Source of the DNA: an uncultured Gammaproteobacteria bacterium
Lineage (GTDB): Bacteria > Patescibacteriota > Patescibacteriia > Magasanikbacterales > UBA922
Assembly (NCBI GenBank): GCA_964522435.1
Contig: CAZFUL010000006.1
Location: 9,573 to 73,572, forward strand
DNA length: 64,000 bases
Reading direction: 5' to 3'
Part shown: positions 4,841-52,600 of the stretch, piece after piece
How positions within the stretch are numbered: position 1 is the stretch's first letter
Layout of the letters: the number at the start of each line of letters is the position of its first letter
Notes under the pieces: generated by a model
What the model was told of the DNA's origin: nothing
Seen by the model: only the letters and a program-made list of their open reading frames with translations
Database searches by the model: none
Made by a program: the position numbers and the translations under genes

Positions 4841-4860
4841 TCATGTTACGTTATTTATAT

Positions 4861-4993: not shown

Positions 4994-5026
4994 CAAAAAA
5001 CCCACCGTTCTGGTGAGTTTTTTATT
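4994..5026. terminator. Weak bidirectional intrinsic terminator-like hairpin (CACC-gttct-GGTG flanked by A-run and T-run)
   Basis: aaaaaacccaccgttctggtgagtttttt. Confidence 0.3.
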
Positions 5027-7738: not shown

Positions 7739-8320
7739 GGTGCGATCTCCTTATAGTCAGCAGTGGGTGCTCTCGCCTTCCCCACTCACATCAAACGATG
7801 ATCACCATCTAGGTCACGCCGATATGCTTATGCCTCATTGGTATTGAGGTAAGCAATCATTGTTTCCCCGAGCAACTTTACCGTTACCCGCGCGTTCTCC
7901 TCCCCTAACGATGGGGCAAAGAACTGATGGCATTCACAATCTTTCAGTAAGTAGAGTTGGTTCAAGCGGTTGTACGCACAGATGCCCGAGCTGGGCAAAC
8001 CATACCCGAGCACCGTGCCGGGTTACTGTACGCAGGAAAGTGCTCTTTGTTTTTGTAGAGCAGCTTCATGCGTACAGCAACGCCGGAGGCGTATCTATAT
8101 TATTACTTTTATTCCTCAATTGTAAGGATCAAATTGCTAAACAGTCAGCGCATCATTAAACACTATGTTTGATCATTTGTCAATGGTACGCAGTTCTGTT
8201 CCCCACTGGCGCGAGGTACAGAGTCGATTTGATTCGGCCTCGGTATACGAGGCACCAGTGGGAGGGGGGTTCGGGGATTTGCTTGAGGGGAGAGGCGGGT
8301 GGGGCACCCGGGACAGCCGA

Positions 8321-9226
8321 TCAATCGGCGAGTTCCCAGATGCCCGAGATGAGGGCGCCGCCAACAAGGCCGATAAGCGCAGAAGGAGCGCAGTCGTAGA
8401 GGTCGCTGGGACCTTCATCTTGCTCTCCGCACAAAGCGGCCATTCCGACAGCACCAGCTGCCATCGGCACCGCCCATTTGACGGCGGTGTAGGCATTGGA
8501 GTGGCTGCCGGCGGGCGGCGGGTCGATGAAGAGCATCCGTCCCCCGTCGAGGGGGATGGAGCACTCCCGCCCCTCTTCCACGCAGAGCGTGGCGAGGGCG
8601 TTGGGCTCCAACACTGCCTTCATGCAGGTCTCCAGGGACTTGGCCAAGATGGAGAGCGTATCTGCTCCCACCCCGGCCGAGTGGGCCACGGTGATCGCAC
8701 GGGCTTTGGCCTCGCACGCGGAGGTGACCAGACCTTGCTGGATCAGCCGGTCCAACTTGGCGTTGGCGGCGTCCAGCTTGGCTTGGGTTTCTTCGTCGTG
8801 CAGGGTCAGGGCGTCGGAAACGCCCTCGATGGCGCCCATGAGCTCCGTGTGCCGATCCTCTGCCTGCTTGCTGAGCAAGTCGAGCCGGTCGAGGACCGGA
8901 CGGAGGTTGACGCCACGTTCGCGAGAGGCGATGCGCTTCGCAGCGCGCTCGCAGGCCGCGACGAAACCGCGGGGGTCACAGCGCTCTTCGAAACAGCGCG
9001 CTGCTTCCTCCAGCTTCTCCTCACAGGTGCTCGCGTCGGCGCGGGAGGCGCCGTTCTTGAACTCCTTCGAAGCCGCCAGCATGTCGGCGGCAACGAGACG
9101 AGCGGTGGCCAGCGCACTGGCGGCCGCGTATCGGGGGTTGTTGGTCGCATCCCCGGTCGCCGAAGCGCCCGAGGGGAGAAACCCTGCCAGGAAGGCGAGG
9201 GCAAAAAAGAAACTGGAAAACTTCAT
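8321..9226 (-). CDS. Hypothetical secreted protein (signal peptide MKFSSFFFALAFLAGFLPSGASA), Ala-rich helical
   Basis: 301 aa. Good RBS (GGAGGAGAAAAAATC-ATG). A hairpin CCCCTGC-ctcttca-GCAGGGG lies between this and the upstream gene. Confidence 0.45.
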   Translation of the reverse strand: MKFSSFFFALAFLAGFLPSGASATGDATNNPRYAAASALATARLVAADMLAASKEFKNGASRADASTCEEKLEEAARCFEERCDPRGFVAACERAAKRIASRERGVNLRPVLDRLDLLSKQAEDRHTELMGAIEGVSDALTLHDEETQAKLDAANAKLDRLIQQGLVTSACEAKARAITVAHSAGVGADTLSILAKSLETCMKAVLEPNALATLCVEEGRECSIPLDGGRMLFIDPPPAGSHSNAYTAVKWAVPMAAGAVGMAALCGEQDEGPSDLYDCAPSALIGLVGGALISGIWELAD

Positions 9227-9272
9227 GATTTTTTCTCCTCCCCTGCCTCTTCAGCAGGGGGGCTCCATTGTT

Positions 9273-9875
9273 TCAGTTGTTGACCATGAGCCCGCAGCTT
9301 TCGCTGCAGATGGGTTCGGCCTTGGCGCGGTCGAAGCCGAGCTTGACCTGGTCGCTGACGCATTCTTTGATGCAGTCCGCGACCTCATCGCTGCCGGCCT
9401 TCGCCGGGGCGGCGGGCGCCGCGGGGGCGGGGGGGCTGCTGTCACGGCCGAAGCCGAGCAGCAGCGCCACCAAGAGCAAGCAGAGGACGATGGCGGCGAC
9501 GAGCGCCACCATCATTCCCTTGCCGTTGTTGCGGTTCTGCTGCCCGCGGATGAGGCCGGACAGATCCGTCGTTGCATCTTCCACGTGGCTCCGCACCGCG
9601 GAGGCCACGCGGCTCACAGCGCCGGGGGTCAGATCGACCTGCACCGGCGCCGCCACGGGCGCGGGGATGACCGCGGCCGCGGGAGTGGGGCTGGGCTTCG
9701 CCGGGGGCAGGGGCGGGAGCACCTTGGGAGGCGCGGCCGGCGTGGGAGCCGGCTTCACAGGCGCATGAGGGTTGTTGGGAGCGACCCCACCCGGAGGGGC
9801 GGGGGGCGGATTCGTGGTTCCTCCGGGAGGAGGAACCTGGTTGGGAGGCAGACTCCCAGTTCCGGTAACAGACAT
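9273..9875 (-). CDS. Pro-rich single-pass membrane protein with C-terminal Cys-containing ectodomain
   Basis: 200 aa. RBS AGGAGG 7 nt upstream of ATG. N-terminal PPxxP-rich low complexity, TM helix MMVALVAAIVLCLLLVALLLGF, C-terminus with 4 Cys. Confidence 0.45.
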   Translation of the reverse strand: MSVTGTGSLPPNQVPPPGGTTNPPPAPPGGVAPNNPHAPVKPAPTPAAPPKVLPPLPPAKPSPTPAAAVIPAPVAAPVQVDLTPGAVSRVASAVRSHVEDATTDLSGLIRGQQNRNNGKGMMVALVAAIVLCLLLVALLLGFGRDSSPPAPAAPAAPAKAGSDEVADCIKECVSDQVKLGFDRAKAEPICSESCGLMVNN

Positions 9876-10109
9876 TTTGACCTCCTAGGTCATGCGCCCG
9901 GGACACGGACGCGGTGTGAATGCGCTGTGCCCCGGGCCATGGGGTTGCGCGGTTGTGCTCTCTAGAAATGAAATTGGCCAAGCTAAGGGCAACACTACCC
10001 TTATGTTAGCCAATTCCATTCCATATATATATTCTCAAGCAAATTGTAATGAACCGTTTGTTCGCCATAGCCTTTATAGGGCAGTGGCGGTAGCAAGGCT
10101 ATTACCTTA

Positions 10110-10268: not shown

Positions 10269-13200
10269 TTACGCCGCATTCCTTACCACAGTCGTATCAG
10301 TCCCCTGTTTTGGTACCATCACTGGGTCAACCAGCTCTTGTTTTATTAATAAATCTAGCGGATAGAGCTCATACTCATTCCCAGCGTCCACCTGAAAGAC
10401 TGCTTGACGCACCCCATTAACTCGAGACCAAATAATCTCACCGGTTGTTGGTGTTCCCAAAAGGTCCATTTGTAATTTGCCCCCAGCCATTTGTGCTACT
10501 AATCTATCTGGGAGATCAAAGGCAATACTCTTCTTCGCTACCGCATCCCAAGAACGCAACGTAACCGCATCCCCTTTTCGTTCTAATACTATTGGAGTCT
10601 GTGCACTTGCTTGCGGAGCAAACTCAACAACGTTATTTTGATTTTGAGGAGCAGCTTCAGTTGGGGGTACGGCTGGTTTAGTCTCAACAGGAGCAACAGG
10701 TTGCTCTGTCTGTTGTTCTCCTATTACTGGTGGAACAGTTGCTTGAACAGGTTCGGGTAATTCCACAGGAGAGGCATATTGATCGTTTGTTACATCTGCT
10801 ACTCGATAATATTCATAACTCTTCGTCCCATTTGCTGCTTGTCCAGCATCCACACGGAAAAATGGTACTGTTTCTTTAACTGTTGGATCATAGCGAAATT
10901 GCACATCAACCGCAGTTGGTGTTTCAGCAATGGGCACAATTAATTTATTATCTTGCAGTTTTGATTCCCACGCAGCGGGTAACGTTATTGGTTGGGCTTG
11001 CCGTTGCGTTTCATTCCATACAGAAATTTGCTGCTTGCCTGATTCTACTGCGGGCAATACCACAATCGGTTTATCGGCTGTTGGGAGGAGTGATACATCA
11101 CTGCGATCAACCATCATGGGTTTACTCATAATCTCTGCCACCTTATCTTTCCATGCTCGGATCAAATCCTTCTTTTCTTCTGGATCAGTTATATCGGCGG
11201 TTGGATATTTCTTTACATAGTCTTTTGCAAATTCATCAAATGCTTTTTGACCATCTGCTCCCCGTTCTTGAAACAATGCGCGGGTTCTCATCTCGCGTAA
11301 TAGCGCTTTATCGGTGGTAATTTGTGTCACTTTGTTTTCAAATAGTTGTTTCTCTCGTAGTTGTTGTTCTTGTTTAAGATCAACAGCATCTGTTTTGGGT
11401 ATATTTCCGCCTCGCAACGCTTCCATATCCGTTTTCAACACCTTTCCATCATCAGTACGAATATACACCACTTGCTTGCCTTGTTCCGGGCGAATCCAAT
11501 ATTCTGCACGTTTGCCATTACTATTGGTCATGCCGCTGCGGTTGGTGGAATCTAATTTGTCTGGCAAGGTTGCGGCTACCACTTTTTGTGCATCTGCTTT
11601 TGATACCAGCGCATCCATTCCTTTATTTTTCTCGCCTTGCAATTCTGCCAAGGTTGTTTTCATCACCGTACCGGTATTGGTTTTAATATACACGGCAGCA
11701 TCTGGTTGTTTGCCAGTGACCCAATATTCATAGGCACCTTGTTTGCCTACGGCAATGCCCGTTCTGTTGCCACGAGTAAATTGTTCTGGCAACGCAGGTT
11801 TGGTAATGCGTCCTTCATCATCCAATTCTGCCTTAAGAATTTCTGATTTTGGTGCAAATCGCTGTTGTTCGTTAACTATTTCAAGCCGTTGTCTAGGCAT
11901 ATCAGTCAACGATGCTTCACGATTTAAATCAGATAACAATGCTTTTGCTTTTGCCCCTTCAAACTGATACACGCTTGCCTTTCCTTGTGCATCAACATGT
12001 TTCACAAATAAAAAGCTCTTCCCATCGATCGTTTTTATATACACTTCATTGGCTCTCTCTGTTGAACCAAATAACGCACTTCGTTCTAAGGCAAAGCCAT
12101 TAATACGTACTGCTTTGGGAGGGAGGCTGTCAATCTTAACAATACCATGTTTTTCTCCCAACGCGCCTAAACTATGTTTAGCTGTTTCTGCTGGAAGTAC
12201 TTTTTCTGGAAAAGATTTGGCACCATGCTCTTTAATAAACTCTTTGTCTGCGGTAATACCAATCGTCCCATCATCTTTGATAAATGGTTTAAATTCAATT
12301 TGTTTTCCATTTACTTCAAACAATGGTGTTTTGGTATAGGTGCGGCTGTTCATGTCCCACCCAGCATCTTTTGCTAATTCAACACGCCAACGATGCAATA
12401 CTTGATTATCATTCAAGGTAGTATATTCTGGATGCGCTATTCGTTCTTTTTCTATAATCAACGCTTTCATGGTAGCATCTTGTTGTAATGTATTTGCCAC
12501 ATGCAACACATTTTTACCACGCGCATCTTCACCCGCCAACGTAAATTTGTTTAAGTTTTTTTGCAGGTCACCTACCCCGACAGGTCGTTCGGCTGTTTCC
12601 ATACGCGATTGTACTGGTCTTACGACTTCACGATCTTGTGCTCCTGCATAACGCCCATCAGCACTGTCTTGCACGTGTTCTGGTTGTTCCGCAGTAACAT
12701 CTTCCAGTTTCATTCCTGTCATCTTGTTTATTTCATGATCCAAATGATGCGGACCATCCATCGTGGGTAAGGCATATCGTACACCGTCCACGCCAAGCCC
12801 CAACGCCGCAGTAAAAATACCAGCAGGCAATCCTGCTTTAAGTGCTTCGAGAATCCGCGTTTGTTGAGATTGTGTTGGTGAGCCTTTTTCTAAAGTGGTC
12901 AATTTTGCATTGAGTGCTTTTAATGTTGCTTCGTTTATCTTGCCATTAGCGAGTGCACGCTCCAACTTAAGAATGGCATCCTGTTTCGCTTGTTCAGCAA
13001 ATTCTCCTTTTTTATAATAACTTTCTACACTACGACGCAATGTTCCGCTGGTTAAGCGTGCTGCGGTTTTGGCAAGGATATGTCCACTACTCATGGCAAG
13101 TGTTCCCCCAACCAGTGCACCACCAACAAAAGTAAAGATATCGCCAACAAATCGTTTATTGCCTTTCGCATTCAAAAATAAATCACCGCTAAATAAATTC

Positions 13201-16200
13201 GCAATACCACGTGCAGCAACACGAGATAGTTCTATCTTGTTTGATTTTGCATTCGTATCGTAGGCTTGTGGATATAATTCTGCATTGCGTCTGCCAACAT
13301 TCGCGACTAATTTTTCCAAGCGATATTCTGTTTGTCGCTCAATATTATTTTTTCCTTTTTCATTTGCCATGAGCGTATTCAAACTTGCCTCATGCACGGT
13401 TTTACTCGTAAATTGTAGATTCGTTTTACTGTTAAATCCTTCGAGCATCGTCTGCATAGCAGCAGCAAAACGTTCCTGACCAAACGTTCCTTCTGTTTGT
13501 GCAAATACGGCTCGTTGTCGTGCGTCTGCCTCTTGTACTACGTCAGCCCGTGCGCTTTGTTTTTTATCTAGTTGTCCTCGCTTTAATACGCGACGAACTA
13601 ACGAGGTTGTTCCAAATGCCAAACCACCCACAAGAGCCGCTGGTGCGGCAACCGTTGTGGCTAAACCAGCAACTGACAATCCTGCTCCGGCTGATCCGAG
13701 CAATACCCCGAGGTGTTTTTTGGTTCCGCGTACTAATCTATCCGCAAAACCAAAATTTGCTTGATCCATGAGTTCTTGTTGTTGATCGTAACTTCCCAAC
13801 GCACTATCACGAGCAATTTGTCTACTCAAGGCATCGTTGGCCATTGTTTGCATGACCTCTTGCATCATAAAGCAAAGCTGACTCTGCCATGTTTGCAAAA
13901 ATTGATCAAACGATGTGAAACCAGCTTTTTTAACACGCAATTCTAACAAGGCTTTCTTTGCCCCATCAATACCATCAAAAATATTTTTAAAGGCTGCTTC
14001 TACTTGGCGAGGATCTGGATTCTCTATCAACGACCGATATAGATCATTAAGCATGGTTGCACTAAACAGCTCTTTTAATTCCTCCATGCCACTCTTTTTT
14101 CGTTCAATAGTATAGATCTTTTGATCAACATTCTGGCGCCAAACAGATTCAAGAATACGTTGCTCTTGATTACTTTCTAGATGCTGTAACACAATTTCTT
14201 TTTGTCCGTTCTGTTCTTGTATAGCAACAACGACAAACGACGCGGTCGTACCATCTTGGCTTTTAAAAGTTACCACCTCACCCACTTTTGCGGGCTTGCC
14301 TTCGACCATAAATATCTCTGCGTTTCTTTTTTGTTCTTTTGCCGCGTCAACCGCAGCGTCCACCATGCCATGTAATTCGAGGGTTGCGCCATCGGCAACT
14401 TGCTTGCCCATAAAGGCTTGTAGTGTTGCTTCATCCCAAACAACCTCTGTCCCTTTATTGGATTTAAGGAGTAACTCTCCGTTTTCAGATAGTCCTTGTA
14501 CGGTTAATAGCAATACTTTTTTATCTTTACTTGTCCACTTAAGGGTAGCCCCAATCTCAAACGTTCGCCCAATAAATTCAATTGGCGTGGTTTTTTCTGG
14601 AGTTAACACAAAGTCTTGCCAGGTACTTGCGTCAAAGGTAAGCAATGCACCACCCATATCCAGTGCTTTTACTCGTAGCTGTGTACCATCGTCGTTTATA
14701 CCCACAATTTCATAGCGTTTTTTTGTATTCCCTGCTTTTTGTGCGTGATAAATATCTCCCACAAACAAGCGACGACCAGCAAAGGCAATGCCTTTAGGTG
14801 CTTCTTTCTTTGCCGTTGGTGTTTCTTTTTCTCCAACGAGCTCACCACTATCAAAGGCTGCTTTCCACGTATCTCTAGTAAAACGTTCTTCTATATCTGT
14901 TCCAAGCCGTTGCACCACAATTTCAGATCCTGTAGCTGTAGGAATAACACCCAAAACTTCTACCAAATACCCCGGATCTGGACTAACCATTCGTTTCCAT
15001 TTACTCTTTTTTGTCGGAGCACGTTCAAATGTTCCTAAAGCAATAGGATCATCCACTGGACGCACTTTTTCTTTTGCGGCTTGGGGTTCACCCATCAATT
15101 CAATTAATTTGGGTGTTGCCAAAACAGCCGCATCCCATTCTGCTTTGGTAAAATATACTTTTTCTGTTTTTCCTGATTGTTTTACGGCAATTTTGCCACT
15201 GTCTGGGTCAATTCCTAAAATTTCAATCGTATGTGGATTGGTTGGATCAATGAGGTTTTTCCATTTGCTGCCTTTTTTAGGTTGCTCTGCAAACGCAGCA
15301 AGCGCAACTTCATCATCGACAATGCGGGGTTCTGTGACAGGTTTTTTCTCATCTTTTACATAGATATCTCCATCGGCTATTGCTTTATCCCAATCCAATA
15401 GCGTCATTTCTTCCATTACACGTGTTCCAACTTTTTGAAACACAATACTCCCGTTTTCAGGATTAATACCCAATATTTCTATGGTATGTGCAGTACCATC
15501 TGATTTAATTCTTCCCCACTTACTATCTTTTGTTGGTTCTCCATCAAAATCTTCTAACGCGGTTTCATCATTTACAAAACGAATCTTTTCAGGTGCTGGC
15601 GCTTTATCTTTGTTGTCTTTTACAGAAATTGTTCCACTTGCCACTCCTGCATCCCAATCAGCAAGATCCATATATTCTTCATCTTGTTGTTTACCCAATC
15701 GATGAAACACTAATTGATTCGTATCTGGACGAATGCCTTTTATCACAATCGTATATCCTTGTTGTCCTGTTTTTTTGATTGTCCACTGTGCATCTTTTTT
15801 TGGTTCGCCAGCAAATTCTGCGAGTGTTGCTTCATCATTAATAACAATAACTCGTTCTTCTTTTGGAGGAGGAGTCTCTTTTTCGCCTTTGCGAGAAATT
15901 GTTTTTTCCACTACCACGCCATGATTCCAATCAGCTAAATCAATATACTCTTCATCTTCCGGTTTGCCAAAGCGATGCACAACAAGCTGCTCTGTATCAG
16001 GTCGAATTCCTTTTATAACAATCGTATAGGCTCGTTGACCATTTCGACGCACAGTCCACTGAGAATCTTTTCTTGGTTCTTCAGCAAACTCTTTCAGTGC
16101 GGCTTCGTCGTTAACCACTAAAATTTTCTCTTCTTTTGGAGGCGCTTGTTCTTTTTTGATTTCAATAAGACTACGATCGGCAAGTGCATCATGCCATTCT

Positions 16201-17375
16201 TGTTCAGTAAAAAATTCTTGATCACTCGTGTCTTGTCTTTGCAGTGCTAAACGTCCATAAGAAGTTACCCCTTTTACAATAAGTGTATGTGGTACCTTTT
16301 GACCAGTTTTTTTTCTTGTCCAACGACTATCAATATGAGGTGAACCGTCAAACGCTTCAAGCGATGCACGATCTTTGGTAATCGTCTCTGGTTGTGGTGG
16401 TTCTTTATCACTAATCAATTCTGCTAAAATATCCTCATTCCAATCTTGTTGTGTATAGAACACCTTATCACGACTTTGTTTTTTTATAGCAACAAGCCGT
16501 CCATCTTGAACACCTTTAATAACAAAAGGAAATTGTTTTTTACCATCATGAAACCAAAACGTGCTTCCTGCACGCGGATCCTGCATAAAACCCGCAAATG
16601 CTTCCTCTTCTGTTTGTAAGCCACGAGATTCTGGCGCTGCGGTTGTATCTGGTATATCTTCTATTCTGGCATGAAAATTATGTAACTCTTGTAGTGTGTA
16701 GGGTTGCGTATCCCCCTCGACAAATACACGTCCATCTTTTATTTTTTCCACAATAACAATTCCCCTAAACAAATTACCATCAGCCCCTTCTTGATCAAGC
16801 TCAATATGCATACCTGCACGGAGCTGTTTCTTTTGAAAATAAATGCTATTTTTTCGTATTTCCCAATCAGTCCCTGAAGCTTGAGATTCTGGCGAAGCAA
16901 CGGCACTAAGATTCGTTGTTGGTGGAGGAACAGACTCGTTATCTAACCCTTTACTTGCAAGAAAATCAGTTACCTGAATAAGCGGCACGTTTCTCGTTGC
17001 CGCTTGAAAACTTCGAGATAAGGCCGGAATGTCTACCTTTTTTCCCGGAGGTAATTCATCTAACACAACTAATTCAGCAACAATTTTTGCTTTTTCATTA
17101 CGAAGTCTCACTAATTGTTCGACAAATGGTCGTAATGCTGTTTGTGTGCTTTTTTGCATCAATGTTTTAATCGCTGCATCAATAGCCCTTAACCGTTGAT
17201 CAACTTGTTGTGCAATTTTTTTATTTTCGGCTTTCATTTCTTCAATCACCTGCCTCACCTCTTCTCGATATTCACCGACAGTTTGCAACGCAGCCTCTTT
17301 ATCAGCATGCAGTTCATGCAATGTTTCTACTTTCTTTTGTAAGTCTTCTAATTGTTGTTTATGTTGTCCAGGCAT
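10269..17375 (-). CDS. Giant (2368 aa) repeat protein without signal peptide: N-terminal coiled coil, ~10 copies of a ~90-100-aa module, Gly-rich hydrophobic segments
   Basis: Continuous ORF. Repeated modules such as ...YTIVIKGIRPDTEQLVVHRFGKPEDEEYIDLADWNHGV... recur with variation. Glycine-zipper-like TM segments (GLSVAGLATTVAAPAALVGGLAFG; FTFVGGALVGGTLAMSSG). Confidence 0.6.
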   Translation of the reverse strand: MPGQHKQQLEDLQKKVETLHELHADKEAALQTVGEYREEVRQVIEEMKAENKKIAQQVDQRLRAIDAAIKTLMQKSTQTALRPFVEQLVRLRNEKAKIVAELVVLDELPPGKKVDIPALSRSFQAATRNVPLIQVTDFLASKGLDNESVPPPTTNLSAVASPESQASGTDWEIRKNSIYFQKKQLRAGMHIELDQEGADGNLFRGIVIVEKIKDGRVFVEGDTQPYTLQELHNFHARIEDIPDTTAAPESRGLQTEEEAFAGFMQDPRAGSTFWFHDGKKQFPFVIKGVQDGRLVAIKKQSRDKVFYTQQDWNEDILAELISDKEPPQPETITKDRASLEAFDGSPHIDSRWTRKKTGQKVPHTLIVKGVTSYGRLALQRQDTSDQEFFTEQEWHDALADRSLIEIKKEQAPPKEEKILVVNDEAALKEFAEEPRKDSQWTVRRNGQRAYTIVIKGIRPDTEQLVVHRFGKPEDEEYIDLADWNHGVVVEKTISRKGEKETPPPKEERVIVINDEATLAEFAGEPKKDAQWTIKKTGQQGYTIVIKGIRPDTNQLVFHRLGKQQDEEYMDLADWDAGVASGTISVKDNKDKAPAPEKIRFVNDETALEDFDGEPTKDSKWGRIKSDGTAHTIEILGINPENGSIVFQKVGTRVMEEMTLLDWDKAIADGDIYVKDEKKPVTEPRIVDDEVALAAFAEQPKKGSKWKNLIDPTNPHTIEILGIDPDSGKIAVKQSGKTEKVYFTKAEWDAAVLATPKLIELMGEPQAAKEKVRPVDDPIALGTFERAPTKKSKWKRMVSPDPGYLVEVLGVIPTATGSEIVVQRLGTDIEERFTRDTWKAAFDSGELVGEKETPTAKKEAPKGIAFAGRRLFVGDIYHAQKAGNTKKRYEIVGINDDGTQLRVKALDMGGALLTFDASTWQDFVLTPEKTTPIEFIGRTFEIGATLKWTSKDKKVLLLTVQGLSENGELLLKSNKGTEVVWDEATLQAFMGKQVADGATLELHGMVDAAVDAAKEQKRNAEIFMVEGKPAKVGEVVTFKSQDGTTASFVVVAIQEQNGQKEIVLQHLESNQEQRILESVWRQNVDQKIYTIERKKSGMEELKELFSATMLNDLYRSLIENPDPRQVEAAFKNIFDGIDGAKKALLELRVKKAGFTSFDQFLQTWQSQLCFMMQEVMQTMANDALSRQIARDSALGSYDQQQELMDQANFGFADRLVRGTKKHLGVLLGSAGAGLSVAGLATTVAAPAALVGGLAFGTTSLVRRVLKRGQLDKKQSARADVVQEADARQRAVFAQTEGTFGQERFAAAMQTMLEGFNSKTNLQFTSKTVHEASLNTLMANEKGKNNIERQTEYRLEKLVANVGRRNAELYPQAYDTNAKSNKIELSRVAARGIANLFSGDLFLNAKGNKRFVGDIFTFVGGALVGGTLAMSSGHILAKTAARLTSGTLRRSVESYYKKGEFAEQAKQDAILKLERALANGKINEATLKALNAKLTTLEKGSPTQSQQTRILEALKAGLPAGIFTAALGLGVDGVRYALPTMDGPHHLDHEINKMTGMKLEDVTAEQPEHVQDSADGRYAGAQDREVVRPVQSRMETAERPVGVGDLQKNLNKFTLAGEDARGKNVLHVANTLQQDATMKALIIEKERIAHPEYTTLNDNQVLHRWRVELAKDAGWDMNSRTYTKTPLFEVNGKQIEFKPFIKDDGTIGITADKEFIKEHGAKSFPEKVLPAETAKHSLGALGEKHGIVKIDSLPPKAVRINGFALERSALFGSTERANEVYIKTIDGKSFLFVKHVDAQGKASVYQFEGAKAKALLSDLNREASLTDMPRQRLEIVNEQQRFAPKSEILKAELDDEGRITKPALPEQFTRGNRTGIAVGKQGAYEYWVTGKQPDAAVYIKTNTGTVMKTTLAELQGEKNKGMDALVSKADAQKVVAATLPDKLDSTNRSGMTNSNGKRAEYWIRPEQGKQVVYIRTDDGKVLKTDMEALRGGNIPKTDAVDLKQEQQLREKQLFENKVTQITTDKALLREMRTRALFQERGADGQKAFDEFAKDYVKKYPTADITDPEEKKDLIRAWKDKVAEIMSKPMMVDRSDVSLLPTADKPIVVLPAVESGKQQISVWNETQRQAQPITLPAAWESKLQDNKLIVPIAETPTAVDVQFRYDPTVKETVPFFRVDAGQAANGTKSYEYYRVADVTNDQYASPVELPEPVQATVPPVIGEQQTEQPVAPVETKPAVPPTEAAPQNQNNVVEFAPQASAQTPIVLERKGDAVTLRSWDAVAKKSIAFDLPDRLVAQMAGGKLQMDLLGTPTTGEIIWSRVNGVRQAVFQVDAGNEYELYPLDLLIKQELVDPVMVPKQGTDTTVVRNAA

Positions 17376-21045: not shown

Positions 21046-21457
21046 GGGGATGACAGGGATCGATAGACGGATCCGCTGATATTTATGTGCATACCGAGGT
21101 CGCCTGTCCTCGTTAAAAGGCAAGGCAACACACAAGTGCAAACCTTGTAAACCGAGTTAGCAACGTATTTGCCCGTGTTTCACGCGCATTTACTCCAGCG
21201 CTCGCAACCGCTGTCGCGTAATAGCTTGATAGCCATCGCGCCCACGATACTCAATAGTGGAACCGTGGTGTCAACCCAATTGAGTGTAGATAGCGGATAT
21301 CTTGCATGGGTATCCCCCATCGAAATAAACCCCATGCAGGCTCTTGTGGATGTTGCTGGTTATATACCAACAATGAGCCTCAAAAAAAATCAGCTATGTA
21401 TGTAGGACATGATATAAGCCCGGACTAGACCCGAGTTCAATTCTCGGCATCTCCACA
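21046..21457 (+). ncRNA. ssrA: tmRNA (ssrA)
   Basis: 5' end GGGGATGACAGGGATCGATAGACGG matches the tmRNA acceptor/D-region consensus. 3' end has a T-arm CGAGTTCAATTCTCG and acceptor CATCTCC pairing with GGGGATG. Internal tag reading frame ends ...ALATAVA followed by tandem stops TAA-TAG (21219-21224). Sits directly after smpB. Confidence 0.85.
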
Positions 21458-21565
21458 AAAACAATGAGCAATGAACAATAAACAATGAACAAAACTTTCC
21501 CGTTCTGCAGTTTATTGAAGATAGCAAAATTGTTAATTGTTTATTGCTAATTGTTAATTGTTACT

Positions 21566-23454: not shown

Positions 23455-23530
23455 GGACCGGTAGTTCAATGGTTAGAGCACCGCCCTGTCACGGCGGAAG
23501 TTGCGGGTTCGAGCCCCGTCCGGTCCGCCA
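23455..23530 (+). tRNA. tRNA-Asp (anticodon GTC), CCA encoded
   Basis: Acceptor GGACCGG/CCGGTCC. D-arm GTTC-AATGGTTA-GAGC. Anticodon stem-loop CCGCC-CTGTCAC-GGCGG. T-arm GCGGG-TTCGAGC-CCCGT. Discriminator G plus CCA. Confidence 0.9.
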
Positions 23531-25168
23531 ATCATCTAAAACTGGGGTAACAACCCTAGTTTTTGTTTTCATTAAGCCAATTTCTTTGGTTATAGTGACT
23601 TTTTTCTTCCGATTGTACTCAATTAGGTAGAGATGTGGAGATTTGGCTGTATAGAGTACAGTTTGATCTTTGAGTACAGGGTTATAGTAAAAAAATTGGA
23701 ACATATCTCTTTTCTCTTCTGGGGTTGTTCCATAAAATCGGTCTTTGATGTTTTTTACAAAATCGAGATACGAAACGCAGGCTTCATACCAAACTTCTTC
23801 ATTTTTTTCTGTTACTCCCATTTCATCTTGTATAAGCTGCCTTTGTTTCGTTAACATTTCCTTCTGATACTTAAAATCTTCAATACTCAATAAATCCCCT
23901 TCTTTATTCTCTGGAGATATTTTCAGACTTACGAGGTTCTGGAACTTTGTCTCAATATTTTTTAATTCAGCAGTCTGTTTCTTCCGTTTTGCATTGTACA
24001 TCTCAACTTCTCCCGCATTTGTTTTATTTATCTCCTCAATAGCAAGCTCATAAAACTCTTCATCTATTTGTATATCTTCTAATAGGGCTTCGAGCTGTTT
24101 GTCTATCTCTGTTTCGGGTGTATATGCAATACCCTTACACTTCATGCACCTATAATAGACATGACCTTTTGCAGTAAGGGCTGATATATTTTTGCCACAC
24201 TCACCGCAAGCCATACTATTTGTATACCTGTAATAGTTCTTTGCGGAATGTGGCTTAGATCGCAATCCTAAGGCCTCTTGAGTGCGGTGAAAAAGCTCCT
24301 TTGTGATGAGTGCTTCATGACGAGTTTCTTCCGGTAACTCATCCGGCTCTATAATACTTTCCTTCCATGGAATAGCTCCATAGTAGAATGGATTTGTTAA
24401 TATTCTATGAATTGTCTGCTTACTTAACATCTTCTTGCTTCTGGTTGCGATAAGTCCCCATGACTCACTTTCTCTCCTTAGATGTGCAAGTGTGTACTTC
24501 CCAGTGGCTGATAAAATAAACAACTTTTTAACCAATGGAGCAATAATCGGATCTTGCTCGACCCGCTTCAAACGATGCCTACTCTCTTCCAGCACCGATT
24601 GCTTCTCTATCGTAAAACGCTTCCCTGATATCTTCCCATCCTTGTCTATATTCAAATAGCCTAATGGTGCATTTGACGGGTACTCCCCCTTCCTCAGCTT
24701 GGCCTTTATATCTCTCTGTACGAAATTACTTGTATCATCCGATGATTTTTTTGACATGGCCAGCTGAAGAGCCATAATAAAACCATCGTCACTATTTTTG
24801 TCGTATATTTTTTCTGGTGTACGAACGACATGTATCTCCCCCGTGTGAAGTTTGTGAAGCAACACTCCTGTATCAAGTGCATTCCGAGAAAGCCGAGATA
24901 AATGGCAACATAGGATCGCATCGGCTTTTCCCTCCTCCAAAATTTGGAGCATTCTCTTAAACTCTGGCCGACCAGGCGAATATGCAGATGCTGACTCCTC
25001 AAAATCAGCAATAATATTCAGATTGTGTCTCTTACATAATTTTTTCAAAACATCATCCTGAGAACGCAAACTCAATACCTGCCTATCATTTTCCTCAGAA
25101 GACTTTCTTTTATAGATAACATAACGAAGTTTATTTGGATCTAATTGTTTCTCTTCGTCAAAAAACAT
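23489..25168 (-). CDS. Large serine recombinase (integrase); 3' end overlaps tRNA-Asp
   Basis: 559 aa. N-terminal resolvase-type catalytic domain (YKRKSSEENDRQ... with nucleophile Ser). Central recombinase domain. Zn-ribbon (CGECGKN...YYRCMKCKG) and coiled-coil region as in large serine recombinases. Last ~14 codons are encoded by the complement of the tRNA 3' half. Confidence 0.85.
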   Translation of the reverse strand: MFFDEEKQLDPNKLRYVIYKRKSSEENDRQVLSLRSQDDVLKKLCKRHNLNIIADFEESASAYSPGRPEFKRMLQILEEGKADAILCCHLSRLSRNALDTGVLLHKLHTGEIHVVRTPEKIYDKNSDDGFIMALQLAMSKKSSDDTSNFVQRDIKAKLRKGEYPSNAPLGYLNIDKDGKISGKRFTIEKQSVLEESRHRLKRVEQDPIIAPLVKKLFILSATGKYTLAHLRRESESWGLIATRSKKMLSKQTIHRILTNPFYYGAIPWKESIIEPDELPEETRHEALITKELFHRTQEALGLRSKPHSAKNYYRYTNSMACGECGKNISALTAKGHVYYRCMKCKGIAYTPETEIDKQLEALLEDIQIDEEFYELAIEEINKTNAGEVEMYNAKRKKQTAELKNIETKFQNLVSLKISPENKEGDLLSIEDFKYQKEMLTKQRQLIQDEMGVTEKNEEVWYEACVSYLDFVKNIKDRFYGTTPEEKRDMFQFFYYNPVLKDQTVLYTAKSPHLYLIEYNRKKKVTITKEIGLMKTKTRVVTPVLDDWRTGRGSNPQLPP

Positions 25169-27751: not shown

Positions 27752-27881
27752 AGTTGGATCAAGCAAGGCTAATTTAGTTTCCACAATTTAGTACACCCAA
27801 AAAAGAGTTAATGATTGTCCTTCGTCCTAATTTTTGATATACTATATGTAAGTTCTTCACCCTCCCTAATCCTATATCTTT

Positions 27882-28478
27882 ATGACTAAAGATAAAACAA
27901 TTCGTTTTGCTTTCAAAAAAATTCTACAGGATCAATATGGTGATGACCCTAATACAAAAATAATTGAGGAATTAGGTGTTGCACATGGTGCTGCACGTAT
28001 AGATATAGCATCGGTTAATGGAATAATACATGGCTACGAACTCAAAAGTGATGCAGACACACTAAACCGCCTTCCGGAACAGATGGAAATTTACAACATG
28101 ATTTTTGACAAAATCACACTGATTGTAGGAAAAACCCATGTACATGAAGCAATAAAAAAAATCCCTGATTGGTGGGGAATTACACTAGCTAAAATTTCCA
28201 GTTCTGGTGATATTGTTTTCCTCTCAATTAGAGAGGCTGAGTTTAATAAAAAACAAGATTATTTTACCATAGCAAAATTACTCTGGAGACAAGAGGCTTT
28301 GTATATTCTAGAAGAACTAAAGGCAGCAAAAGGCATTAGGTCAAAATCTAGAGACACAATATATAATCGACTCGTCGAAACACTAGACCCTGACGTACTC
28401 AAAAAAACTGTAAACGAACAGTTGCGTATTAGGTTAAATTGGCGATCTGATACAGCACAAACTCTATGTGGTGGTTAA
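27882..28478 (+). CDS. sce7726-family-like protein with PD-(D/E)xK-type motif (…ARIDIASVNG…HGYELKSDADTL…)
   Basis: 198 aa. Recalled resemblance to the sce7726 family that pairs with the sce7725/Beta family. D-x9-E-L-K arrangement suggests a restriction-endonuclease-like fold (inference). Confidence 0.5.
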   Translation: MTKDKTIRFAFKKILQDQYGDDPNTKIIEELGVAHGAARIDIASVNGIIHGYELKSDADTLNRLPEQMEIYNMIFDKITLIVGKTHVHEAIKKIPDWWGITLAKISSSGDIVFLSIREAEFNKKQDYFTIAKLLWRQEALYILEELKAAKGIRSKSRDTIYNRLVETLDPDVLKKTVNEQLRIRLNWRSDTAQTLCGG

Positions 28479-29532
28479 TTCCTACTTGTATCCAAGTGGT
28501 TGAGTTACCAGTTCCTTTTGGGTCTTTGCCCAATTTTTTTTTCTCAATATATTCGGAAAGGTAATTAGCTTTCTCTAATATAATTTCATCACCGTAGCTA
28601 TGCTGTTCACCCCAAAAAAAATCATTATCAACAAGAGACTTTGCATGACCCAAAAATTGTGCAGGGTTCCCCTTGGTGCCTCTTAAAATAAGCCAATCAT
28701 CGTTAAGTGTATATTTTATACTTGAGGAAGCACCAAAATTTTCTGCGTATCTATTATAAATCGGATGACGAATAGAATAATCTGAAAATGTTGGCACTCT
28801 TTCTAACCCCAAATCATTCACCTCTTTCCAATTTAACCAATCCATACGAGCAACCAAATTTGTTTCACCCACTTTACATTCGGACAAATCTTGTGGGAAT
28901 GCTCCACTGCAAAATATGTAGCCTCTCCACTCAGTTAGCTTCTTGATGCTCTGACTTTTCTTCAAGTACTCAATATCTGTTTCGGCAGTCTCTTTCATGT
29001 CAACGAGTAAATCCATATTATCTCGTTTCAACTTAAATGTTTGAACGATAGACTCAATATTCCGATTACACTGATCAATATCTTTGAGGTCTTGCTTCAC
29101 GATACGTAAACAAATACCATCAAAATAATCAAGGTTTCTTTCACAAACTGCACTTTTAAAGTCATCAGGATCACTTAGATTAAAAACAGGTACAAACCTC
29201 AACCCAAGCTTAGAAGCAAGGTTACTAATTTTATCTACACTTTCTATTTTAATCTCATTTTCTATCAAACTAAAATCAATCAAAATTTGACCGTCCCCCC
29301 AGGTATCTTTAACTTGTTGTGGTATTTCATCAATTTTTTTTCTAAACTCCATAATCTGCCATTGTGTGATTTCCTCTAAATTTTCTCGAACTAATGGTTT
29401 CCCTCCTTTATATTTTGGCATCACCAATTCAATCAAAGGTCTAATCATTGTTTTATTTTTTACGAACTTGAGTGCATTGCGTTCCGCAGATTTCCACTTA
29501 AGAACGGGAACATAATTATTAGTATCTGACAT
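28429..29532 (-). CDS. sce7725 / Beta-protein-family-like protein (start MSDTNNYVPVLKWKSAERNALKF…PLIELV)
   Basis: N-terminal YVP[IV]LKWK-x-[AG]E-x-x-AL ... PLIE signature recalled for the Beta-protein/sce7725 family. ATG at 29530-29532 lies 4 nt after the HigA stop. The ORF track extends to 29586. 3' end overlaps the convergent 27882-28478 gene by 50 nt. Confidence 0.5.
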   Translation of the reverse strand: MSDTNNYVPVLKWKSAERNALKFVKNKTMIRPLIELVMPKYKGGKPLVRENLEEITQWQIMEFRKKIDEIPQQVKDTWGDGQILIDFSLIENEIKIESVDKISNLASKLGLRFVPVFNLSDPDDFKSAVCERNLDYFDGICLRIVKQDLKDIDQCNRNIESIVQTFKLKRDNMDLLVDMKETAETDIEYLKKSQSIKKLTEWRGYIFCSGAFPQDLSECKVGETNLVARMDWLNWKEVNDLGLERVPTFSDYSIRHPIYNRYAENFGASSSIKYTLNDDWLILRGTKGNPAQFLGHAKSLVDNDFFWGEQHSYGDEIILEKANYLSEYIEKKKLGKDPKGTGNSTTWIQVGINHHIEFVLYQIANLT

Positions 29533-29536
29533 AATA

Positions 29537-30769
29537 TTAATTTTGACGGGCGGCATCGAAAAAATGACGCACCTTTGCATCCCCAATTATTTTATTTAAA
29601 TACACGTAATTACCTCTTTCATGCCTTATTTTTCCAGCAATAATTGCCACATGAATGCCCAGTTCTTTTGCTAAGCTATTAGCAGCTAGTGGTGAAGGAA
29701 CCAATTTCGCAGCACTTACATCCCATTTATCACTAGGAACTAATGCTTCTCCAGCCAAGTTGTCAGCCTCCTTTTCTTTTTCATCGATTTCCATACCTTT
29801 TATTCCGTCTAGCTCATCGAAAAATAACTCAGAACTGTTGCCGTAGTGCAATGCTATATGAGCTAATTCATGCATTAATGTAAACCAAAAGTTATCAAGC
29901 CGATCATGTCTAAGTGTTAACCCTATAACTGGTTTATCTTCAATAGTAAACATGGCCGCTCCATCTAAACGAGTTTTAGGAAAGTGAGGTTCAGTAACAA
30001 GTACTATCCCATGATTTTTAAGAAATTCTTGAGCTAACAAGGGGCTTTTATCTTGTATGCTTAACTTCACTAGACGCCTCATGAAATCAAGGTCTATTAT
30101 ACCTTTTTTGTATTTAATAGGTGTTTCTATTTCATAAGCTTTTTTTAGTACACAGCCAGCCCAGGCTGAAAGAGCTTGTCGATCTGTTGTTGGTGAGGAT
30201 CTGTAATTTGTTTGTCTAAGTAATCCCTGGAATTGAAGAGGAGAACCCCCTAGTGAGAAAAAAGTTTTTAATACTGTAGAACCATTCTCTCCATCAAACA
30301 TTTGATCTCCAAAATAGCCACGTTTACTCATTTCCTTCAACAAATGTTTACTCCAATTGGCGAACATGGGAACCCCTTCTTTGTCAGGTTTTCTTAAAAG
30401 TGCCTTTGCGGGTATCCCCAAACCATCTTCAAGAGATCTCATCATTTCAACCGTCAATTGACGTTTACCGGAAAGTATTTCAGACACTCGACTTCGACTT
30501 CCTATAAAAGGAACAAGATCAGTTGGTTTTAAGCCTAGTTGATCCATTCTAAATAGAATGGCGTCAATAGCACCTACTACAGACTCTGGAAACTGCTGAG
30601 ACTCATATTCTTTGACAAGAGTAACTAGAAGAGATAGTTTTTCGCCCTCTTCTGTGTCAGGATCAGGATCACTAATCATGAGCTGCTCAATAAATTTGAG
30701 AGCCTCATCATAGTCAGATTGATTTTTTATGAGTTTTATTTTATTAGACATACAACAATTAGTTACCAT
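29537..30769 (-). CDS. higA: HigA-family antitoxin (XRE HTH) fused to ImmA/IrrE-type Zn-metallopeptidase domain (HEXXH: MHELAH)
   Basis: N-terminal ~120 aa closely resembles HigA (…FIGSRSRVSEILSGKRQLTVEMMRSLEDGLGIPAKALL). C-terminal ~290 aa carries the HELAH Zn-peptidase motif typical of COG2856/ImmA. ATG overlaps the higB stop (ATGGTAA). Confidence 0.7.
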   Translation of the reverse strand: MVTNCCMSNKIKLIKNQSDYDEALKFIEQLMISDPDPDTEEGEKLSLLVTLVKEYESQQFPESVVGAIDAILFRMDQLGLKPTDLVPFIGSRSRVSEILSGKRQLTVEMMRSLEDGLGIPAKALLRKPDKEGVPMFANWSKHLLKEMSKRGYFGDQMFDGENGSTVLKTFFSLGGSPLQFQGLLRQTNYRSSPTTDRQALSAWAGCVLKKAYEIETPIKYKKGIIDLDFMRRLVKLSIQDKSPLLAQEFLKNHGIVLVTEPHFPKTRLDGAAMFTIEDKPVIGLTLRHDRLDNFWFTLMHELAHIALHYGNSSELFFDELDGIKGMEIDEKEKEADNLAGEALVPSDKWDVSAAKLVPSPLAANSLAKELGIHVAIIAGKIRHERGNYVYLNKIIGDAKVRHFFDAARQN

Positions 30770-31041
30770 TTCATATACTCATCATGTGTACCCACATTTT
30801 TTACGAGAACAATGTAATTTTTGTAATTTATTCGTACTCTCAAGCGGTACTTATTTCCTCTAATATTAAATACAACTTCGTCCTCAGGTAGAATACTTGC
30901 TTTGGGATACCTATTTTTGACAGCCGAGGGTGTATCCCAATGAGCATCATTTGCCTCACATTCCCATGCCTCCATGTGTTTTTTCGCATCAGCATGTTTC
31001 TGCTTGAAATTTTCTAATATCTGTTGTCCAATCAGTTTCAT
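30763..31041 (-). CDS. higB: HigB-family type II toxin (RelE/ParE superfamily mRNA interferase)
   Basis: 92 aa. …FNIRGNKYRLRVRINYKNYIVLVKNVGTHDEY… aligns with the E. coli HigB pattern (FNVGGNELRVV…VMTHKEYD). Toxin-first gene order as in higBA. Confidence 0.75.
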   Translation of the reverse strand: MKLIGQQILENFKQKHADAKKHMEAWECEANDAHWDTPSAVKNRYPKASILPEDEVVFNIRGNKYRLRVRINYKNYIVLVKNVGTHDEYMKW

Positions 31042-31213
31042 ACGAAAAGCCGTCTGCTATTTATGGTATATACAATGTTCCCATATTGGGATATAATAAC
31101 ATACCATCAATATTACTTCAAGGGAGCTTTGTGGATAAAATTTATACTGCACCATCCAGTACAAACCGACTCTTTTGAAAATACGTTATAATCTTGTCCA
31201 CTACGTCCCGCAG

Positions 31214-31246
31214 GAAAAAATCCCTCATCAGAGGGGTTTTTTATTT
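31214..31246. terminator. Bidirectional intrinsic terminator (AAAAAATCCCTC-atca-GAGGGGTTTTTT)
   Basis: 5-6-bp GC stem with flanking A-run and T-run. Confidence 0.7.
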
Positions 31247-31817: not shown

Positions 31818-32252
31818 CTACCCGCGTGGTGATCGACGCGGCGGGAGTTCACTGAATGCTTCTTCGATCGTTACGCCACCTCCCCGATCCTGGGCAAGTT
31901 GCCATGCCCTCATGTAGCAATTGCGGCAGACGTGATGCGTGCCGATGGTTCGGCGAACATTGTCTGAAGCATTTGCCTCCAAAAAAGTCGAGCACCCAGG
32001 CGCTGCGCAGGTTGTAGCGATGCGAGGAAGCGCTCGCCGTGGCGGAGCAAGATCTGCTTGAAAGACCTCTGCCAGTGTCTTGCCGCTGTTTCTGGCCAGC
32101 TCCCAAATACGCTGGTAACAGCCTCGGCAGAGCTGTTCCCCGTTGATCGATCGCTGCGTGCCTTGAGTAGCTTTGGCAGAGGGTTTGCCACAGCCAGGCG
32201 CAGCACAGATTTCATCCGTCATCGATTTCTCCCTATATCCCATCCTTGGCAA
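31818..32252 (-). CDS. Hypothetical protein with duplicated Cys4 zinc-finger-like domain (2x CAAPGC…CRxCYxRxWxLA…G-T-x-x-E-x-F…LPPRR)
   Basis: 144 aa. The internal ~65-aa duplication is obvious in translation. GC (~60%) is well above the host's. Confidence 0.45.
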   Translation of the reverse strand: MPRMGYREKSMTDEICAAPGCGKPSAKATQGTQRSINGEQLCRGCYQRIWELARNSGKTLAEVFQADLAPPRRALPRIATTCAAPGCSTFLEANASDNVRRTIGTHHVCRNCYMRAWQLAQDRGGGVTIEEAFSELPPRRSPRG

Positions 32253-49639: not shown

Positions 49640-52600
49640 TTATCGATCTCGATTACACGCTTGTCCTGGAACATTACACAGCACGTCCGCATAGTCTGTC
49701 TCAATTGATCCATGACTTGAGGCAATACCTTGTGTGTCGGTTACCACAGCAGCACCATTTACCTCTGGGGTATAAATACGATATTGACCATTAATAAATA
49801 CAATATTAAATGGATGCCAGTAGCGAGCGATCCCTTCATTATTACTTCCAGAAGCATTTTTTAATTCAAATACATAGTCCGGGGTATATAACGAATACGC
49901 TGGTATTTGATTTGCTTGGTACTCATATATTTCAACACGCACATTTCTGTTCGCAAATTCAGAAATAGAGATATTATTTGCATTAGCAATGGCGCCAACA
50001 AAAAACGCAATTGGCCGATTTGCAAAATTTTGCCCTCGCGTTGCGGCTAAGTTTACCGTCATACTTTGCACAACGGTTCTTTGTAGACTAAATACATTGT
50101 GTATTGCCGTTGATCCATCAAATAATGAACAATTATCCGGCATCCAGTACCCTGCCAACGATTCATTATTTGCTCGTTGACGAATACGGTTACACAACCC
50201 GTTCTGGGCTAATACATCCGTATAGGTTAATCGCCCACCATGGCTTCTAATAAACACATCTCCTGAGCGTTGATTAAAGAGATTTCCGGTAAAGGCAATC
50301 ACCTCATCCTGCGCACCGCCTACATCATAGCGTACCACAATACGCAAATGATTTTGTGGTACTGCAGGTGATACAACCAGTTCATTGTTAATTGCCACAC
50401 CTTCTCCCTGTACAGGATAAGGAAACAAACTAAAACGTCCCGCATCAGACAAATTATCTGTTAAGACCGCGCCTACATCAACCCCATTTGGGGCAAGATC
50501 ATCATAATTAGTATTTGGATCAACAACACGCGCAATTTTATCAATATTAAAGGCAACATGATAGGCATCGGTACATAAGGTATTTGCTTCTAAGCGCCGA
50601 GGGTTTATTTGAGCGGGATTATTTGCTGCAGGGTTTCCATTCAAAATAAGATCTGTCAACATTTGGTGAGATTCATTATAGTTATTTCCTACAGAGAACA
50701 CAGAAAACCGAGATACATTTGCCAAGCTCGTTCGGCGTAATAAATACTGCGTTTGAGCAAAATTTCCCCAAGGTGTTAGAGCAAGCTGTGGATTTTCAAT
50801 CACATTCAAAATAGCCAAATTTGGTGTCGCTCCAGGCGCAGGACGCAACCCACAGGTAACACAACTACTCACTAATGAACGACAATCATTGTTACAAGAA
50901 ATATCTCCACGCTGGGTATATACATTTGGCGTATCAAAACATTGTTTTACCTCGTGATCTAAGGTCGCAGGACGACCCAACAATAATGCTAATTGATTCG
51001 CAAATAAGGCTTGCGGCGCAGCAATACGATTAGAGGTTCCCAAAGATTCCTGAAGTGGTGAGGTAATAACTCGTTCATTTCCACCTTCAGTTATCACATC
51101 GCAAGCTTCATACACAGGAATTTGTACTTCTGCCCCATCAATAAAGCGCAATGTACGATTTTCTCCCACAAGATCAATAACCCCATTGCCACAATAGGCC
51201 ACAGAATCTGCGGTTAATACTTCTCGACAGTCAACAGAACAATAATTACAGGTTCCTTCATACCCGGCAGTACAAGCAATACCATTTTGATCGCCATTGT
51301 CACACAGCTCTGCCACATTATTTCTATTTGGGGATTGCACAATACCATCGCCACAACGTCCGGCTAATTCTGGATTTACTTGTGGCGCAGCACCCTGACA
51401 TAAGGCATTACAACCATCACCGTTACGCGTATTCCCATCATCACACTGTTCTCCAAATTGTCCTTGGGTCACGCCATCACCACAAAAACCACCATGATTT
51501 TGACAACTGAGTGAACAAGAATTTGACTGACGAAGCGCATATTCTTGACATGCCGTAATATCTAAGATAGCCGTGCGGAATTGCTCTGGTTCATCAACGC
51601 GTAATACGGTATCGGTTCCTCCTAATTCAGCCCATTGTACAAACACATCTTGTTGGCCCTGTACTGCTAATACATAGGTGTATACTCCGTCACTCAATAA
51701 TTGAGTAATTTCCTCGTTTGGTGATTGGGCTTCAGCAACAGGACCATCAACCACAACAACAAAGCTTTTGGGTCGAGCTGCTTCTACCGGATCGTTAGGG
51801 CTAAAGACACCACGATTGCGCAGCGCATCAATACCAGAACCAAGGGGGGCGGTCCAAAGCGCATTGGGATTTCCTGCAGCAAGCAATGCCGCGCGAACCT
51901 GTTGCGGTGTATAGAATCCCACAGGCAAAATCTCAGGATATTGATTCTCAGCAACAACGCCTCTAAATAATGCAATACCAATTTTTGCTTTTCCTTCTAA
52001 CTCTTGCGCGATATTGGTCATACCATCAATAGTAACTGCCCAATTTGTTGGGACATTCAGACCACGCACGGTTTGCATTGATCCAGAATGTTCTATCAAA
52101 AAGTAGACTACTGGCTCACCAACGGCATTATTATCTAAAATAAATTGACAGACCCCTCCCACTTCATCACAAAATTCAAAGGTAGTTTCTCCTCCATCAA
52201 AACGACCATTATTATTCGCATCAGCAAAATCAAGGACACCATTACCACAAGAACCGGCAGCAGAAACGCTTCTACAGCCAAGATTGAGAGCGGGGTTTCC
52301 AGGATGTTGTCCGGGCGCATCACATTGTCCATACCGGCCATTTAACGCTCCATCGTCACAGAGTTCATCTGGGTCGACAATACCATTTCCACAACTTCCT
52401 ACCTGTTCACAGGCACCAACTTCCCACTGACACGCATCGGTACAACGACTCAGCGCACGTTGATTAGGCACAGCCTGACGATTTCCATTTGCATCAATTT
52501 GTACACAGGCAACATCTTGAACACTTCCAGGAGGATCACAGGACTCCCCAATATTTACCACGCCATCACCACAACGTCCTGCAAAAGGACTGTGGACATC

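Follow-up and report, generated by a model that had tools for sequence, protein, structure and literature searches.

Do the four genes at positions 27,882–31,041 of a 64,000-nucleotide (nt) stretch of contig CAZFUL010000006.1 (assembly GCA_964522435.1; the whole stretch is called the window here) work together as one phage-defense system, and has such a system been described before? Three of these genes lie on the minus strand and encode, in this order, a HigB-like protein (component A), a fusion of an XRE-type helix-turn-helix (HTH) with an ImmA/IrrE-type peptidase (B), and a protein of the Beta family of satellite phage P4 (C); the fourth, on the plus strand, encodes a P4 cII-like protein of the sce7726 family and converges on the Beta gene. 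An earlier reading made from the DNA letters without database searches (the sequence-only reading) had taken the four for an abortive-infection (Abi) or defense system not described as such. The defense logic of that proposal stood, but its novelty did not: all three PADLOC models of PD-λ-2 matched the minus-strand genes, which on these matches are the PD-λ-2 operon, a validated system, so that "not described as such" was wrong for the operon, and Beta and cII are parts of the likewise described Gop-β-cII. What is new is the four-gene combination of the operon with a conserved cII gene, which is widespread. We give a probability of roughly 60% to the reading that the four genes constitute a two-module Abi cassette, in which the HigB/peptidase pair gates and the Beta–cII pair executes; the individual steps of this scheme have much lower probabilities. 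The locus itself is far beyond chance, as each open reading frame (ORF) has a strong family match, and as 25 species-level genome loci and 70 metagenome loci show the same arrangement.

The HigB-like protein matched Pfam HigB_toxin (E-value 7.9e-23), which upholds the identity given to it earlier, and matched PADLOC PD-Lambda-2_A (8.3e-38) along residues 1–92, its full length; R66, H86, and Y89 each show at least 80% conservation among 84 homologs. The 410-amino-acid (aa) protein matched PADLOC PD-Lambda-2_B (1.5e-137, covering residues 9–406) and Pfam Peptidase_M78 (8e-08), and the HELAH motif occupies its residues 300–304, of which H300, E301, and H304 did not vary in alignment A1 and were conserved in 95% or more of 89 homologs. 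Its HTH_3 match (3.5e-4) reached 21 bits, just under the Pfam cut-off of 23 bits, whereas residues 7–116 were homologous to Escherichia coli HigA (PDB 5ifg/5ycl, 5e-14). An XRE HTH and an ImmA/IrrE peptidase in one chain, as the sequence-only reading had it, are thus supported by the Peptidase_M78 match, the kept HExxH motif and the HigA-homologous N-terminus. The same protein gave weak matches to PADLOC capP and RmrA, and PHROG transcription-regulator families matched it as well.

PD-λ-2 was recovered by functional selection in E. coli and gives Abi defense against λvir (Vassallo et al. 2022, Nat Microbiol); its components are a HigB-like protein, a protein with an Xre-HTH and a peptidase, and a protein "related to a P4 phage antitoxin". 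The window operon is like it in gene order (HigB-like, XRE-HTH with ImmA/IrrE peptidase, P4 Beta-like) and in the shared direction of the genes, but it has diverged strongly, B being 42% identical to the protein of E. coli C, and HigB and Beta 23% and 28% identical to those of E. coli. The canonical E. coli loci, whose B and C proteins hit the PADLOC models at 1e-186 and 4e-164, have three genes without cII; unlike these and other enterobacterial loci, the clade of the window carries the convergent, overlapping cII/sce7726 gene. In the E. coli system B is toxic and A neutralizes it, while C is needed for defense against λvir but not for neutralization (Vassallo et al. 2022). The sequence-only reading had cast HigB as the effector toxin, a role that runs contrary to this toxicity of the HTH-peptidase protein and its neutralization by the HigB-like protein; HigB is probably not the toxin here. 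On the chromosome of E. coli C, PD-λ-2 is followed by a convergent SIR2-family gene (6695–8212 of that locus; PADLOC candidate PDC-S25, 1e-159), in an island bounded by an integrase.

Comparison with other toxin–antitoxin (TA) and switch systems gave partial likeness. The toxin-first order, the HigB_toxin match and the HigA-like N-terminal HTH are shared with the E. coli HigB/HigA pair (PDB 5ifg); in place of the small HTH antitoxin of a type II HigBA module, the window has a 410-aa zinc-peptidase fusion, and the roles of the two proteins are reversed in the E. coli PD-λ-2 homolog. ImmA/ImmR, IrrE/DdrO, and CapP/CapH combine the same peptidase family with an XRE HTH, and by analogy a signal-activated protease acting on a repressor is plausible here; in the window, unlike in these systems, HTH and peptidase are fused and paired with a RelE-fold protein, and the analogy is one of mechanism only.

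The convergent gene gave equally clear matches. Its product matched NCBIfam sce7726_fam NF033832 at 3.4e-47 (160.7 bits; cut-off, 70 bits), in agreement with the membership proposed for it, and PADLOC 'cll', the cII component of P4 gop-beta-cII, at 1.2e-25. P4 cII, too, belongs to sce7726_fam, by its score (2.5e-44) as well as by its RefSeq annotation, and the Pfam name for the sce7726/cII family is now Phage_P4_cII. Structure prediction of the product of 27882–28478 gave a PD-(D/E)xK fold with an αβββαβ restriction-endonuclease-like core. The nuclease motif anticipated as D-x9-ELK is present with another spacing, D41-x11-E53-L-K55, and is preceded by E30. Conservation of E30, D41, E53, and K55 reaches at least 95% among 85 family members, with P4 cII in the set, and suggests an active nuclease; on the predicted fold, too, cII is probably a nuclease, and sequence search found no solved or characterized relative of cII.

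For Beta, the Pfam Beta_protein match (2.3e-54) bears out the family named by the sequence-only reading. PADLOC PD-Lambda-2_C matched at 5.6e-38 and PADLOC 'beta' only in part, at 3.1e-07; the Beta of the window is therefore closer to the PD-λ-2C type. The further label sce7725 was not supported by the NCBIfam models: no sce7725 model matched the Beta of the window or that of P4, even at E ≤ 10. The structure was predicted with confidence (pLDDT 89.4) as a divergent triosephosphate isomerase (TIM) barrel. D178, D251, and H355 are each at least 95% conserved among 77 family members, and the polar residues K12/K14, D86, R143, and K180, conserved in alignment A3, map to the ends of strands in the barrel model. 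Beta is probably an enzyme; a search of solved structures by sequence found no relatives for it. Beta is the fastest-evolving of the four proteins: its median identity is 36%, that of the others 50–54%. A search of genome contigs with the single Beta sequence gave no match, and the approach was repeated with alignments. On a Pseudomonas putida plasmid, the gene at 4043–5107 of the locus converges on an sce7726 gene; its 354-aa product is a remote Beta homolog (hhalign 95%, E 3.6e-8) that no NCBIfam model names, so that the Pfam and NCBIfam models do not capture the full breadth of the Beta family.

The convergent pair has its counterpart in Gop-β-cII of P4, which gives protection from λ and P1, presumably as a TA or Abi system (Ghisotti 1990; Rousset et al. 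2022); the accessory gene orf184 of a coliphage triggers cell killing by it. Both loci have a convergent Beta/cII pair with an sce7726-family cII, with identities between P4 and the window of 29% for cII and, over part of the length, 23% for β. They differ upstream, where the window has the HigB and HTH-peptidase genes instead of Gop: phmmer with P4 Gop found no match in the window or in any retrieved locus except P4 itself. They also differ in the junction of the pair, as P4 β and cII do not overlap and are separated by a 27-nt gap with a terminator between them. The annotated P4 cII terminator lies at the place equivalent to a hairpin past the cII stop in the window (28518–28533; Table 1).

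In the window, the Beta stop (28429–28431) and the cII stop (28476–28478) enclose a convergent overlap of 50 nt, which codes for both C-termini and holds conserved residues of both proteins (I-N-H-H and Q-I-A-N-L in Beta, N-W-R in cII). The length of this overlap was 2 modulo 3 in 26/26 genome loci, in 76/76 metagenome loci, and in 29 of the 37 overlapping viral pairs; 70 of the 76 metagenome loci had an overlap of precisely 50 nt. The constant phase indicates that the segment is homologous and dual-coding.

The relationship among the four genes was analyzed in the best 80 matches of each search, made with B against species-level genomes and with Beta against metagenomes; the genome loci were scored with hidden Markov models (HMMs) built for the purpose. 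Among the 80 genome loci, 25 contained HigB, B, and Beta with a convergent cII, 3 had Beta without cII, and 52 consisted of the HigB–B pair only; in all of them a HigB-like gene stood just before the B gene. One of the three loci without cII was ended by a contig end, whereas those of Piscinibacter and Pectobacterium are genuinely without it, so that a convergent, overlapping cII accompanied 25 of the 27 Beta-linked loci with enough flank. All 23 loci with at least 51% identity to the B of the window and enough flank had the four genes. In the metagenomes, B lay upstream and cII downstream of Beta in 70 of the 80 loci; the other 10 end at contig ends and are undecidable, which leaves zero counter-examples among the 70 decidable loci. 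The three-gene form of PD-λ-2 thus did not hold for these relatives, given cII in 25/27 genome and 70/70 decidable metagenome loci. The sequence-only reading was to be abandoned if the Beta and cII proteins hit neither their families nor a nuclease fold, or if their adjacency with higBA were unique to this contig; in view of the family matches, and of an adjacency of higBA, Beta, and sce7726 conserved across genomes and metagenomes, neither is the case. A literature search found no paper on a four-gene PD-λ-2 or on a role for sce7726.

Each pair of genes was also found on its own. Convergent Beta accompanied cII in 40 of 52 viral-contig loci, in none of which the HigB–B module lay upstream of Beta; stand-alone Beta/sce7726 pairs occur on plasmids of E. 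coli, Rhodococcus, and Bacillus, and HigB–B pairs are plasmid-borne as well. The ORFs upstream of stand-alone Beta–cII pairs were mostly spurious-looking, a few having transmembrane segments, and all-versus-all phmmer among them found no common partner, linking only loci L125 and L129, which are apparent near-duplicates. Other upstream arrangements were seen on two plasmids: in Sinorhizobium terangae (2914–6217 of the locus), a 132-aa PDC-M63A-like protein replaces HigB before B, Beta, and cII, and in Agrobacterium pQ15_94_1, HTH and ImmA are separate genes beside an unannotated Beta-like ORF and sce7726.

Pairwise identities across 25 loci showed co-variation of the proteins, with Spearman coefficients of 0.87 for B–cII, 0.74 for B–Beta, and 0.67 for Beta–cII (Mantel p ≤ 5e-4). 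In a neighbor-joining tree of B, built without bootstrap support, the Beta-linked systems formed two clades, and the cII-less enterobacterial systems and that of Piscinibacter nested among four-gene relatives. Because the cII-less PD-λ-2 of E. coli nests in this way, the tree tentatively suggests that cII was lost in the lineage of this model system and that the three-gene form is derived.

The gene boundaries were read directly in the sequence, and all four ORFs lie where they had been placed. The operon is co-directional and tightly packed. On the minus strand, the stop of the B gene (TAA, 29539–29537) is followed by TATT and then by the Beta ATG at 29532, which gives the 4-nt spacer that had been reported, as had the 50-nt convergent overlap. 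The NCBI database record makes Beta 375 aa long, with an implied start 24 nt upstream; the consensus of homologs favors the start at 29532 over that record. The junction of A and B is a 7-nt overlap or an 11-nt gap, depending on the choice of B start. The ATGGTAA taken for translational coupling of higB and higA is present (30769–30763, minus-strand sequence), and a start/stop overlap there is possible, but it is not the best-supported start: homologs of the peptidase begin at the position of its Met7, in the PADLOC profile alignment as well as in alignment A1, and the likelier start is therefore the ATG at 30751, 11 nt past the higB stop.

Table 1. Features of the four-gene locus and its surroundings (window positions).
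Feature	Position	Strand	Description
HigB-like gene (PD-λ-2A)	30763–31041	−	92 aa, RelE-fold; first gene of operon
HTH-peptidase gene (PD-λ-2B)	29537–30769	−	410 aa; probable true start ATG at 30751
Beta gene (PD-λ-2C)	28429–29532	−	367 aa; P4 Beta family
cII gene (fourth gene)	27882–28478	+	198 aa; P4 cII-like/sce7726 family; convergent with Beta
Beta/cII 3'–3' overlap	28429–28478	both	50 nt; codes for both C-termini (Beta ...INHHIEFVLYQIANLT, stop; cII ...RLNWRSDTAQTLCGG, stop)
Promoter-like site upstream of higB	31093–31121	−	consensus scan 9/12, TG extension; putative function
Inverted repeat	31058–31069 / 31101–31112		TATTTATGGTAT / ATACCATCAATA; 12 nt, 92% complementary, 31 nt apart; brackets the higB promoter-like site
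Promoter-like site upstream of cII	27815–27843	+	consensus scan 9/12, TG extension; putative
Terminator-like hairpin and T-run	28518–28533	+	40 nt past cII stop, within Beta coding region; putative
Bidirectional terminator-like hairpin	31215–31242		divides operon from right-hand neighbor
tRNA-Asp	23455–23530	+	ARAGORN, Rfam
Large serine recombinase	23489–25168	−	Pfam Resolvase, Recombinase, Zn_ribbon_recom; 3' end overlaps tRNA-Asp

These observations can be arranged in the two-module cassette favored here. One module would be a TA-like pair of the HigB-like protein and the HigA-HTH/ImmA-IrrE peptidase fusion, the other a P4-type convergent pair of Beta and cII, each found alone elsewhere; the first module plus Beta makes up PD-λ-2, to which cII would be a fixed fourth component here and in most environmental relatives. 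In the uninfected cell, the HigB-like protein and the HTH-peptidase may be held in a mutually neutralizing complex whose HTH autoregulates the operon, in keeping with the toxicity of B and its neutralization by A seen for the E. coli homolog; the inverted repeat at 31058–31112 could be a candidate operator for this HTH. A phage cue may then alter the complex or the state of the peptidase, by analogy with ImmA/IrrE/CapP-type peptidases. Beta would be required to convert the cue into defense, as its homolog PD-λ-2C is for defense in E. coli, and the cII nuclease may act on DNA as the execution step, so that the infected cell would stop growing or die. The phase-locked overlap would give the two transcripts complementary 3' ends, which may make cII expression dependent on operon expression.

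The cassette as drawn counts cII as a component, and this depends on whether the gene belongs to the system at all. An ordinary three-gene PD-λ-2 with an unrelated convergent neighbor, for example a separate defense or mobile-element gene, would agree with the validated E. coli system, which has three genes and works without cII, and with the SIR2/PDC-S25 or hypothetical proteins that E. coli and Pectobacterium carry in the position of cII. An unrelated neighbor is nevertheless hardly to be expected in 25/27 genome and 70/70 decidable metagenome loci, always overlapping Beta in one frame relation, co-varying with B at r = 0.87, and forming in P4 Gop-β-cII the same convergent pair, and we consider this explanation very improbable. 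The relation between the operon and the element around it allows another view, namely a HigBA-type addiction or stabilization module for an integrated island, with Beta and cII as accessories and no phage defense in the host of the window. Such a role would suit the HigB–B pairs, which are common alone (52/80 loci) and occur on plasmids, as well as the position of the locus in a low-GC island beside a serine recombinase and a tRNA. We regard it as unlikely, because the homologous operon of E. coli came out of a selection for phage defense and was shown to provide it, with Beta required, because the four genes are conserved together in many phyla and contexts, and because Beta–cII pairs are frequent in prophages, as genes for the exclusion of competing phages usually are.

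There is little chance, too, that the HTH-peptidase is a switch of the ImmR/ImmA kind known from ICEBs1 and phage φ105, controlling whether the mobile element is induced or excised, with the other genes as cargo. ImmA/IrrE peptidase and XRE HTH domains are typical of such switches, the PHROG transcription-regulator matches point the same way, and a recombinase lies 4.4 kb off; but relatives occupy very different chromosomal and plasmid contexts, and most of the annotated neighborhoods examined are without an adjacent recombinase, although the two E. coli loci have recombinase and integrase genes nearby. The constant HigB-like gene before B, the Beta and cII genes after B in the clade of the window, and the toxicity of the E. 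coli protein within a defense system also speak against a switch. The two-module cassette has evidence against it as well. The census, limited to the best matches, is biased toward relatives of the window, and part of the co-variation of the proteins could stem from the common history of their hosts. In E. coli, PD-λ-2 gives defense in the absence of cII, which is therefore dispensable in at least one lineage. The fold matches of Beta, moreover, are to generic TIM barrels, without an informative solved relative.

A wider proposal, which we put forward tentatively and consider doubtful, is that Beta–cII, whose frame-locked 3' overlap would be ancient, would be the conserved core of a modular defense superfamily comprising Gop-β-cII, PD-λ-2, and many stand-alone prophage pairs. 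The cII nuclease would then be the real effector and the fast-evolving Beta a TIM-barrel enzyme or sensor, the upstream gates (Gop, HigB with the HTH-peptidase, and others) would be interchangeable, and E. coli PD-λ-2 would be derived by loss of cII. If this were true, the published definition of PD-λ-2, and whatever mechanism is derived from the E. coli form, would be incomplete.

The surroundings of the locus allow a limited statement on its mobility. GC content is 33–37% over 25–31 kb, compared with ~41% for the window, and the tRNA-Asp/recombinase junction (23455–25168) is a possible left end of a low-GC island carrying the cassette. The tRNA-integrated element of the sequence-only reading was not confirmed, its support being limited to the adjacency of tRNA-Asp and the large serine recombinase together with the GC dip. 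A search for attR within the 64-kb window found neither a further copy of the tRNA-Asp 3' end nor a long direct repeat, as is expected for serine recombinases. ORFs flanking the cassette had no Pfam or PHROG matches. Further features were noted elsewhere in the window. A transfer-messenger RNA gene (21046–21458, plus strand; Rfam 108.6 bits, not reported by ARAGORN) is located 2 kb to the left of the point where tRNA-Asp and recombinase meet. On the other side, in a 46–51% GC bump at 32–34 kb, 31818–32252 (minus strand) encodes a 144-aa Cys-rich ORFan with an internal duplication (CAAPGC ... CRxCYxRxWxLA) and no Pfam or PHROG match. The region 5001–10000 is a block of 61–67% GC in a contig of ~40% GC. 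Both of its strands carry long ORFs, and it represents either foreign sequence or a chimera from assembly; one ORF in it (5255–7738, minus strand, 827 aa) has four MopE-type Cu-binding motifs. Two giant ORFs are also on the minus strand, at 10269–17375 (2368 aa) and 49640–60757 (3705 aa).

Taken for what it is, the locus refines known systems and does not represent a new kind of biology. The analysis indicates that two validated anti-phage systems, PD-λ-2 and Gop-β-cII, are linked by a shared, conserved two-gene core of Beta and cII. The common natural form of PD-λ-2 is indicated to have four genes, not three, and the detection rules of PADLOC and DefenseFinder could be extended to it.

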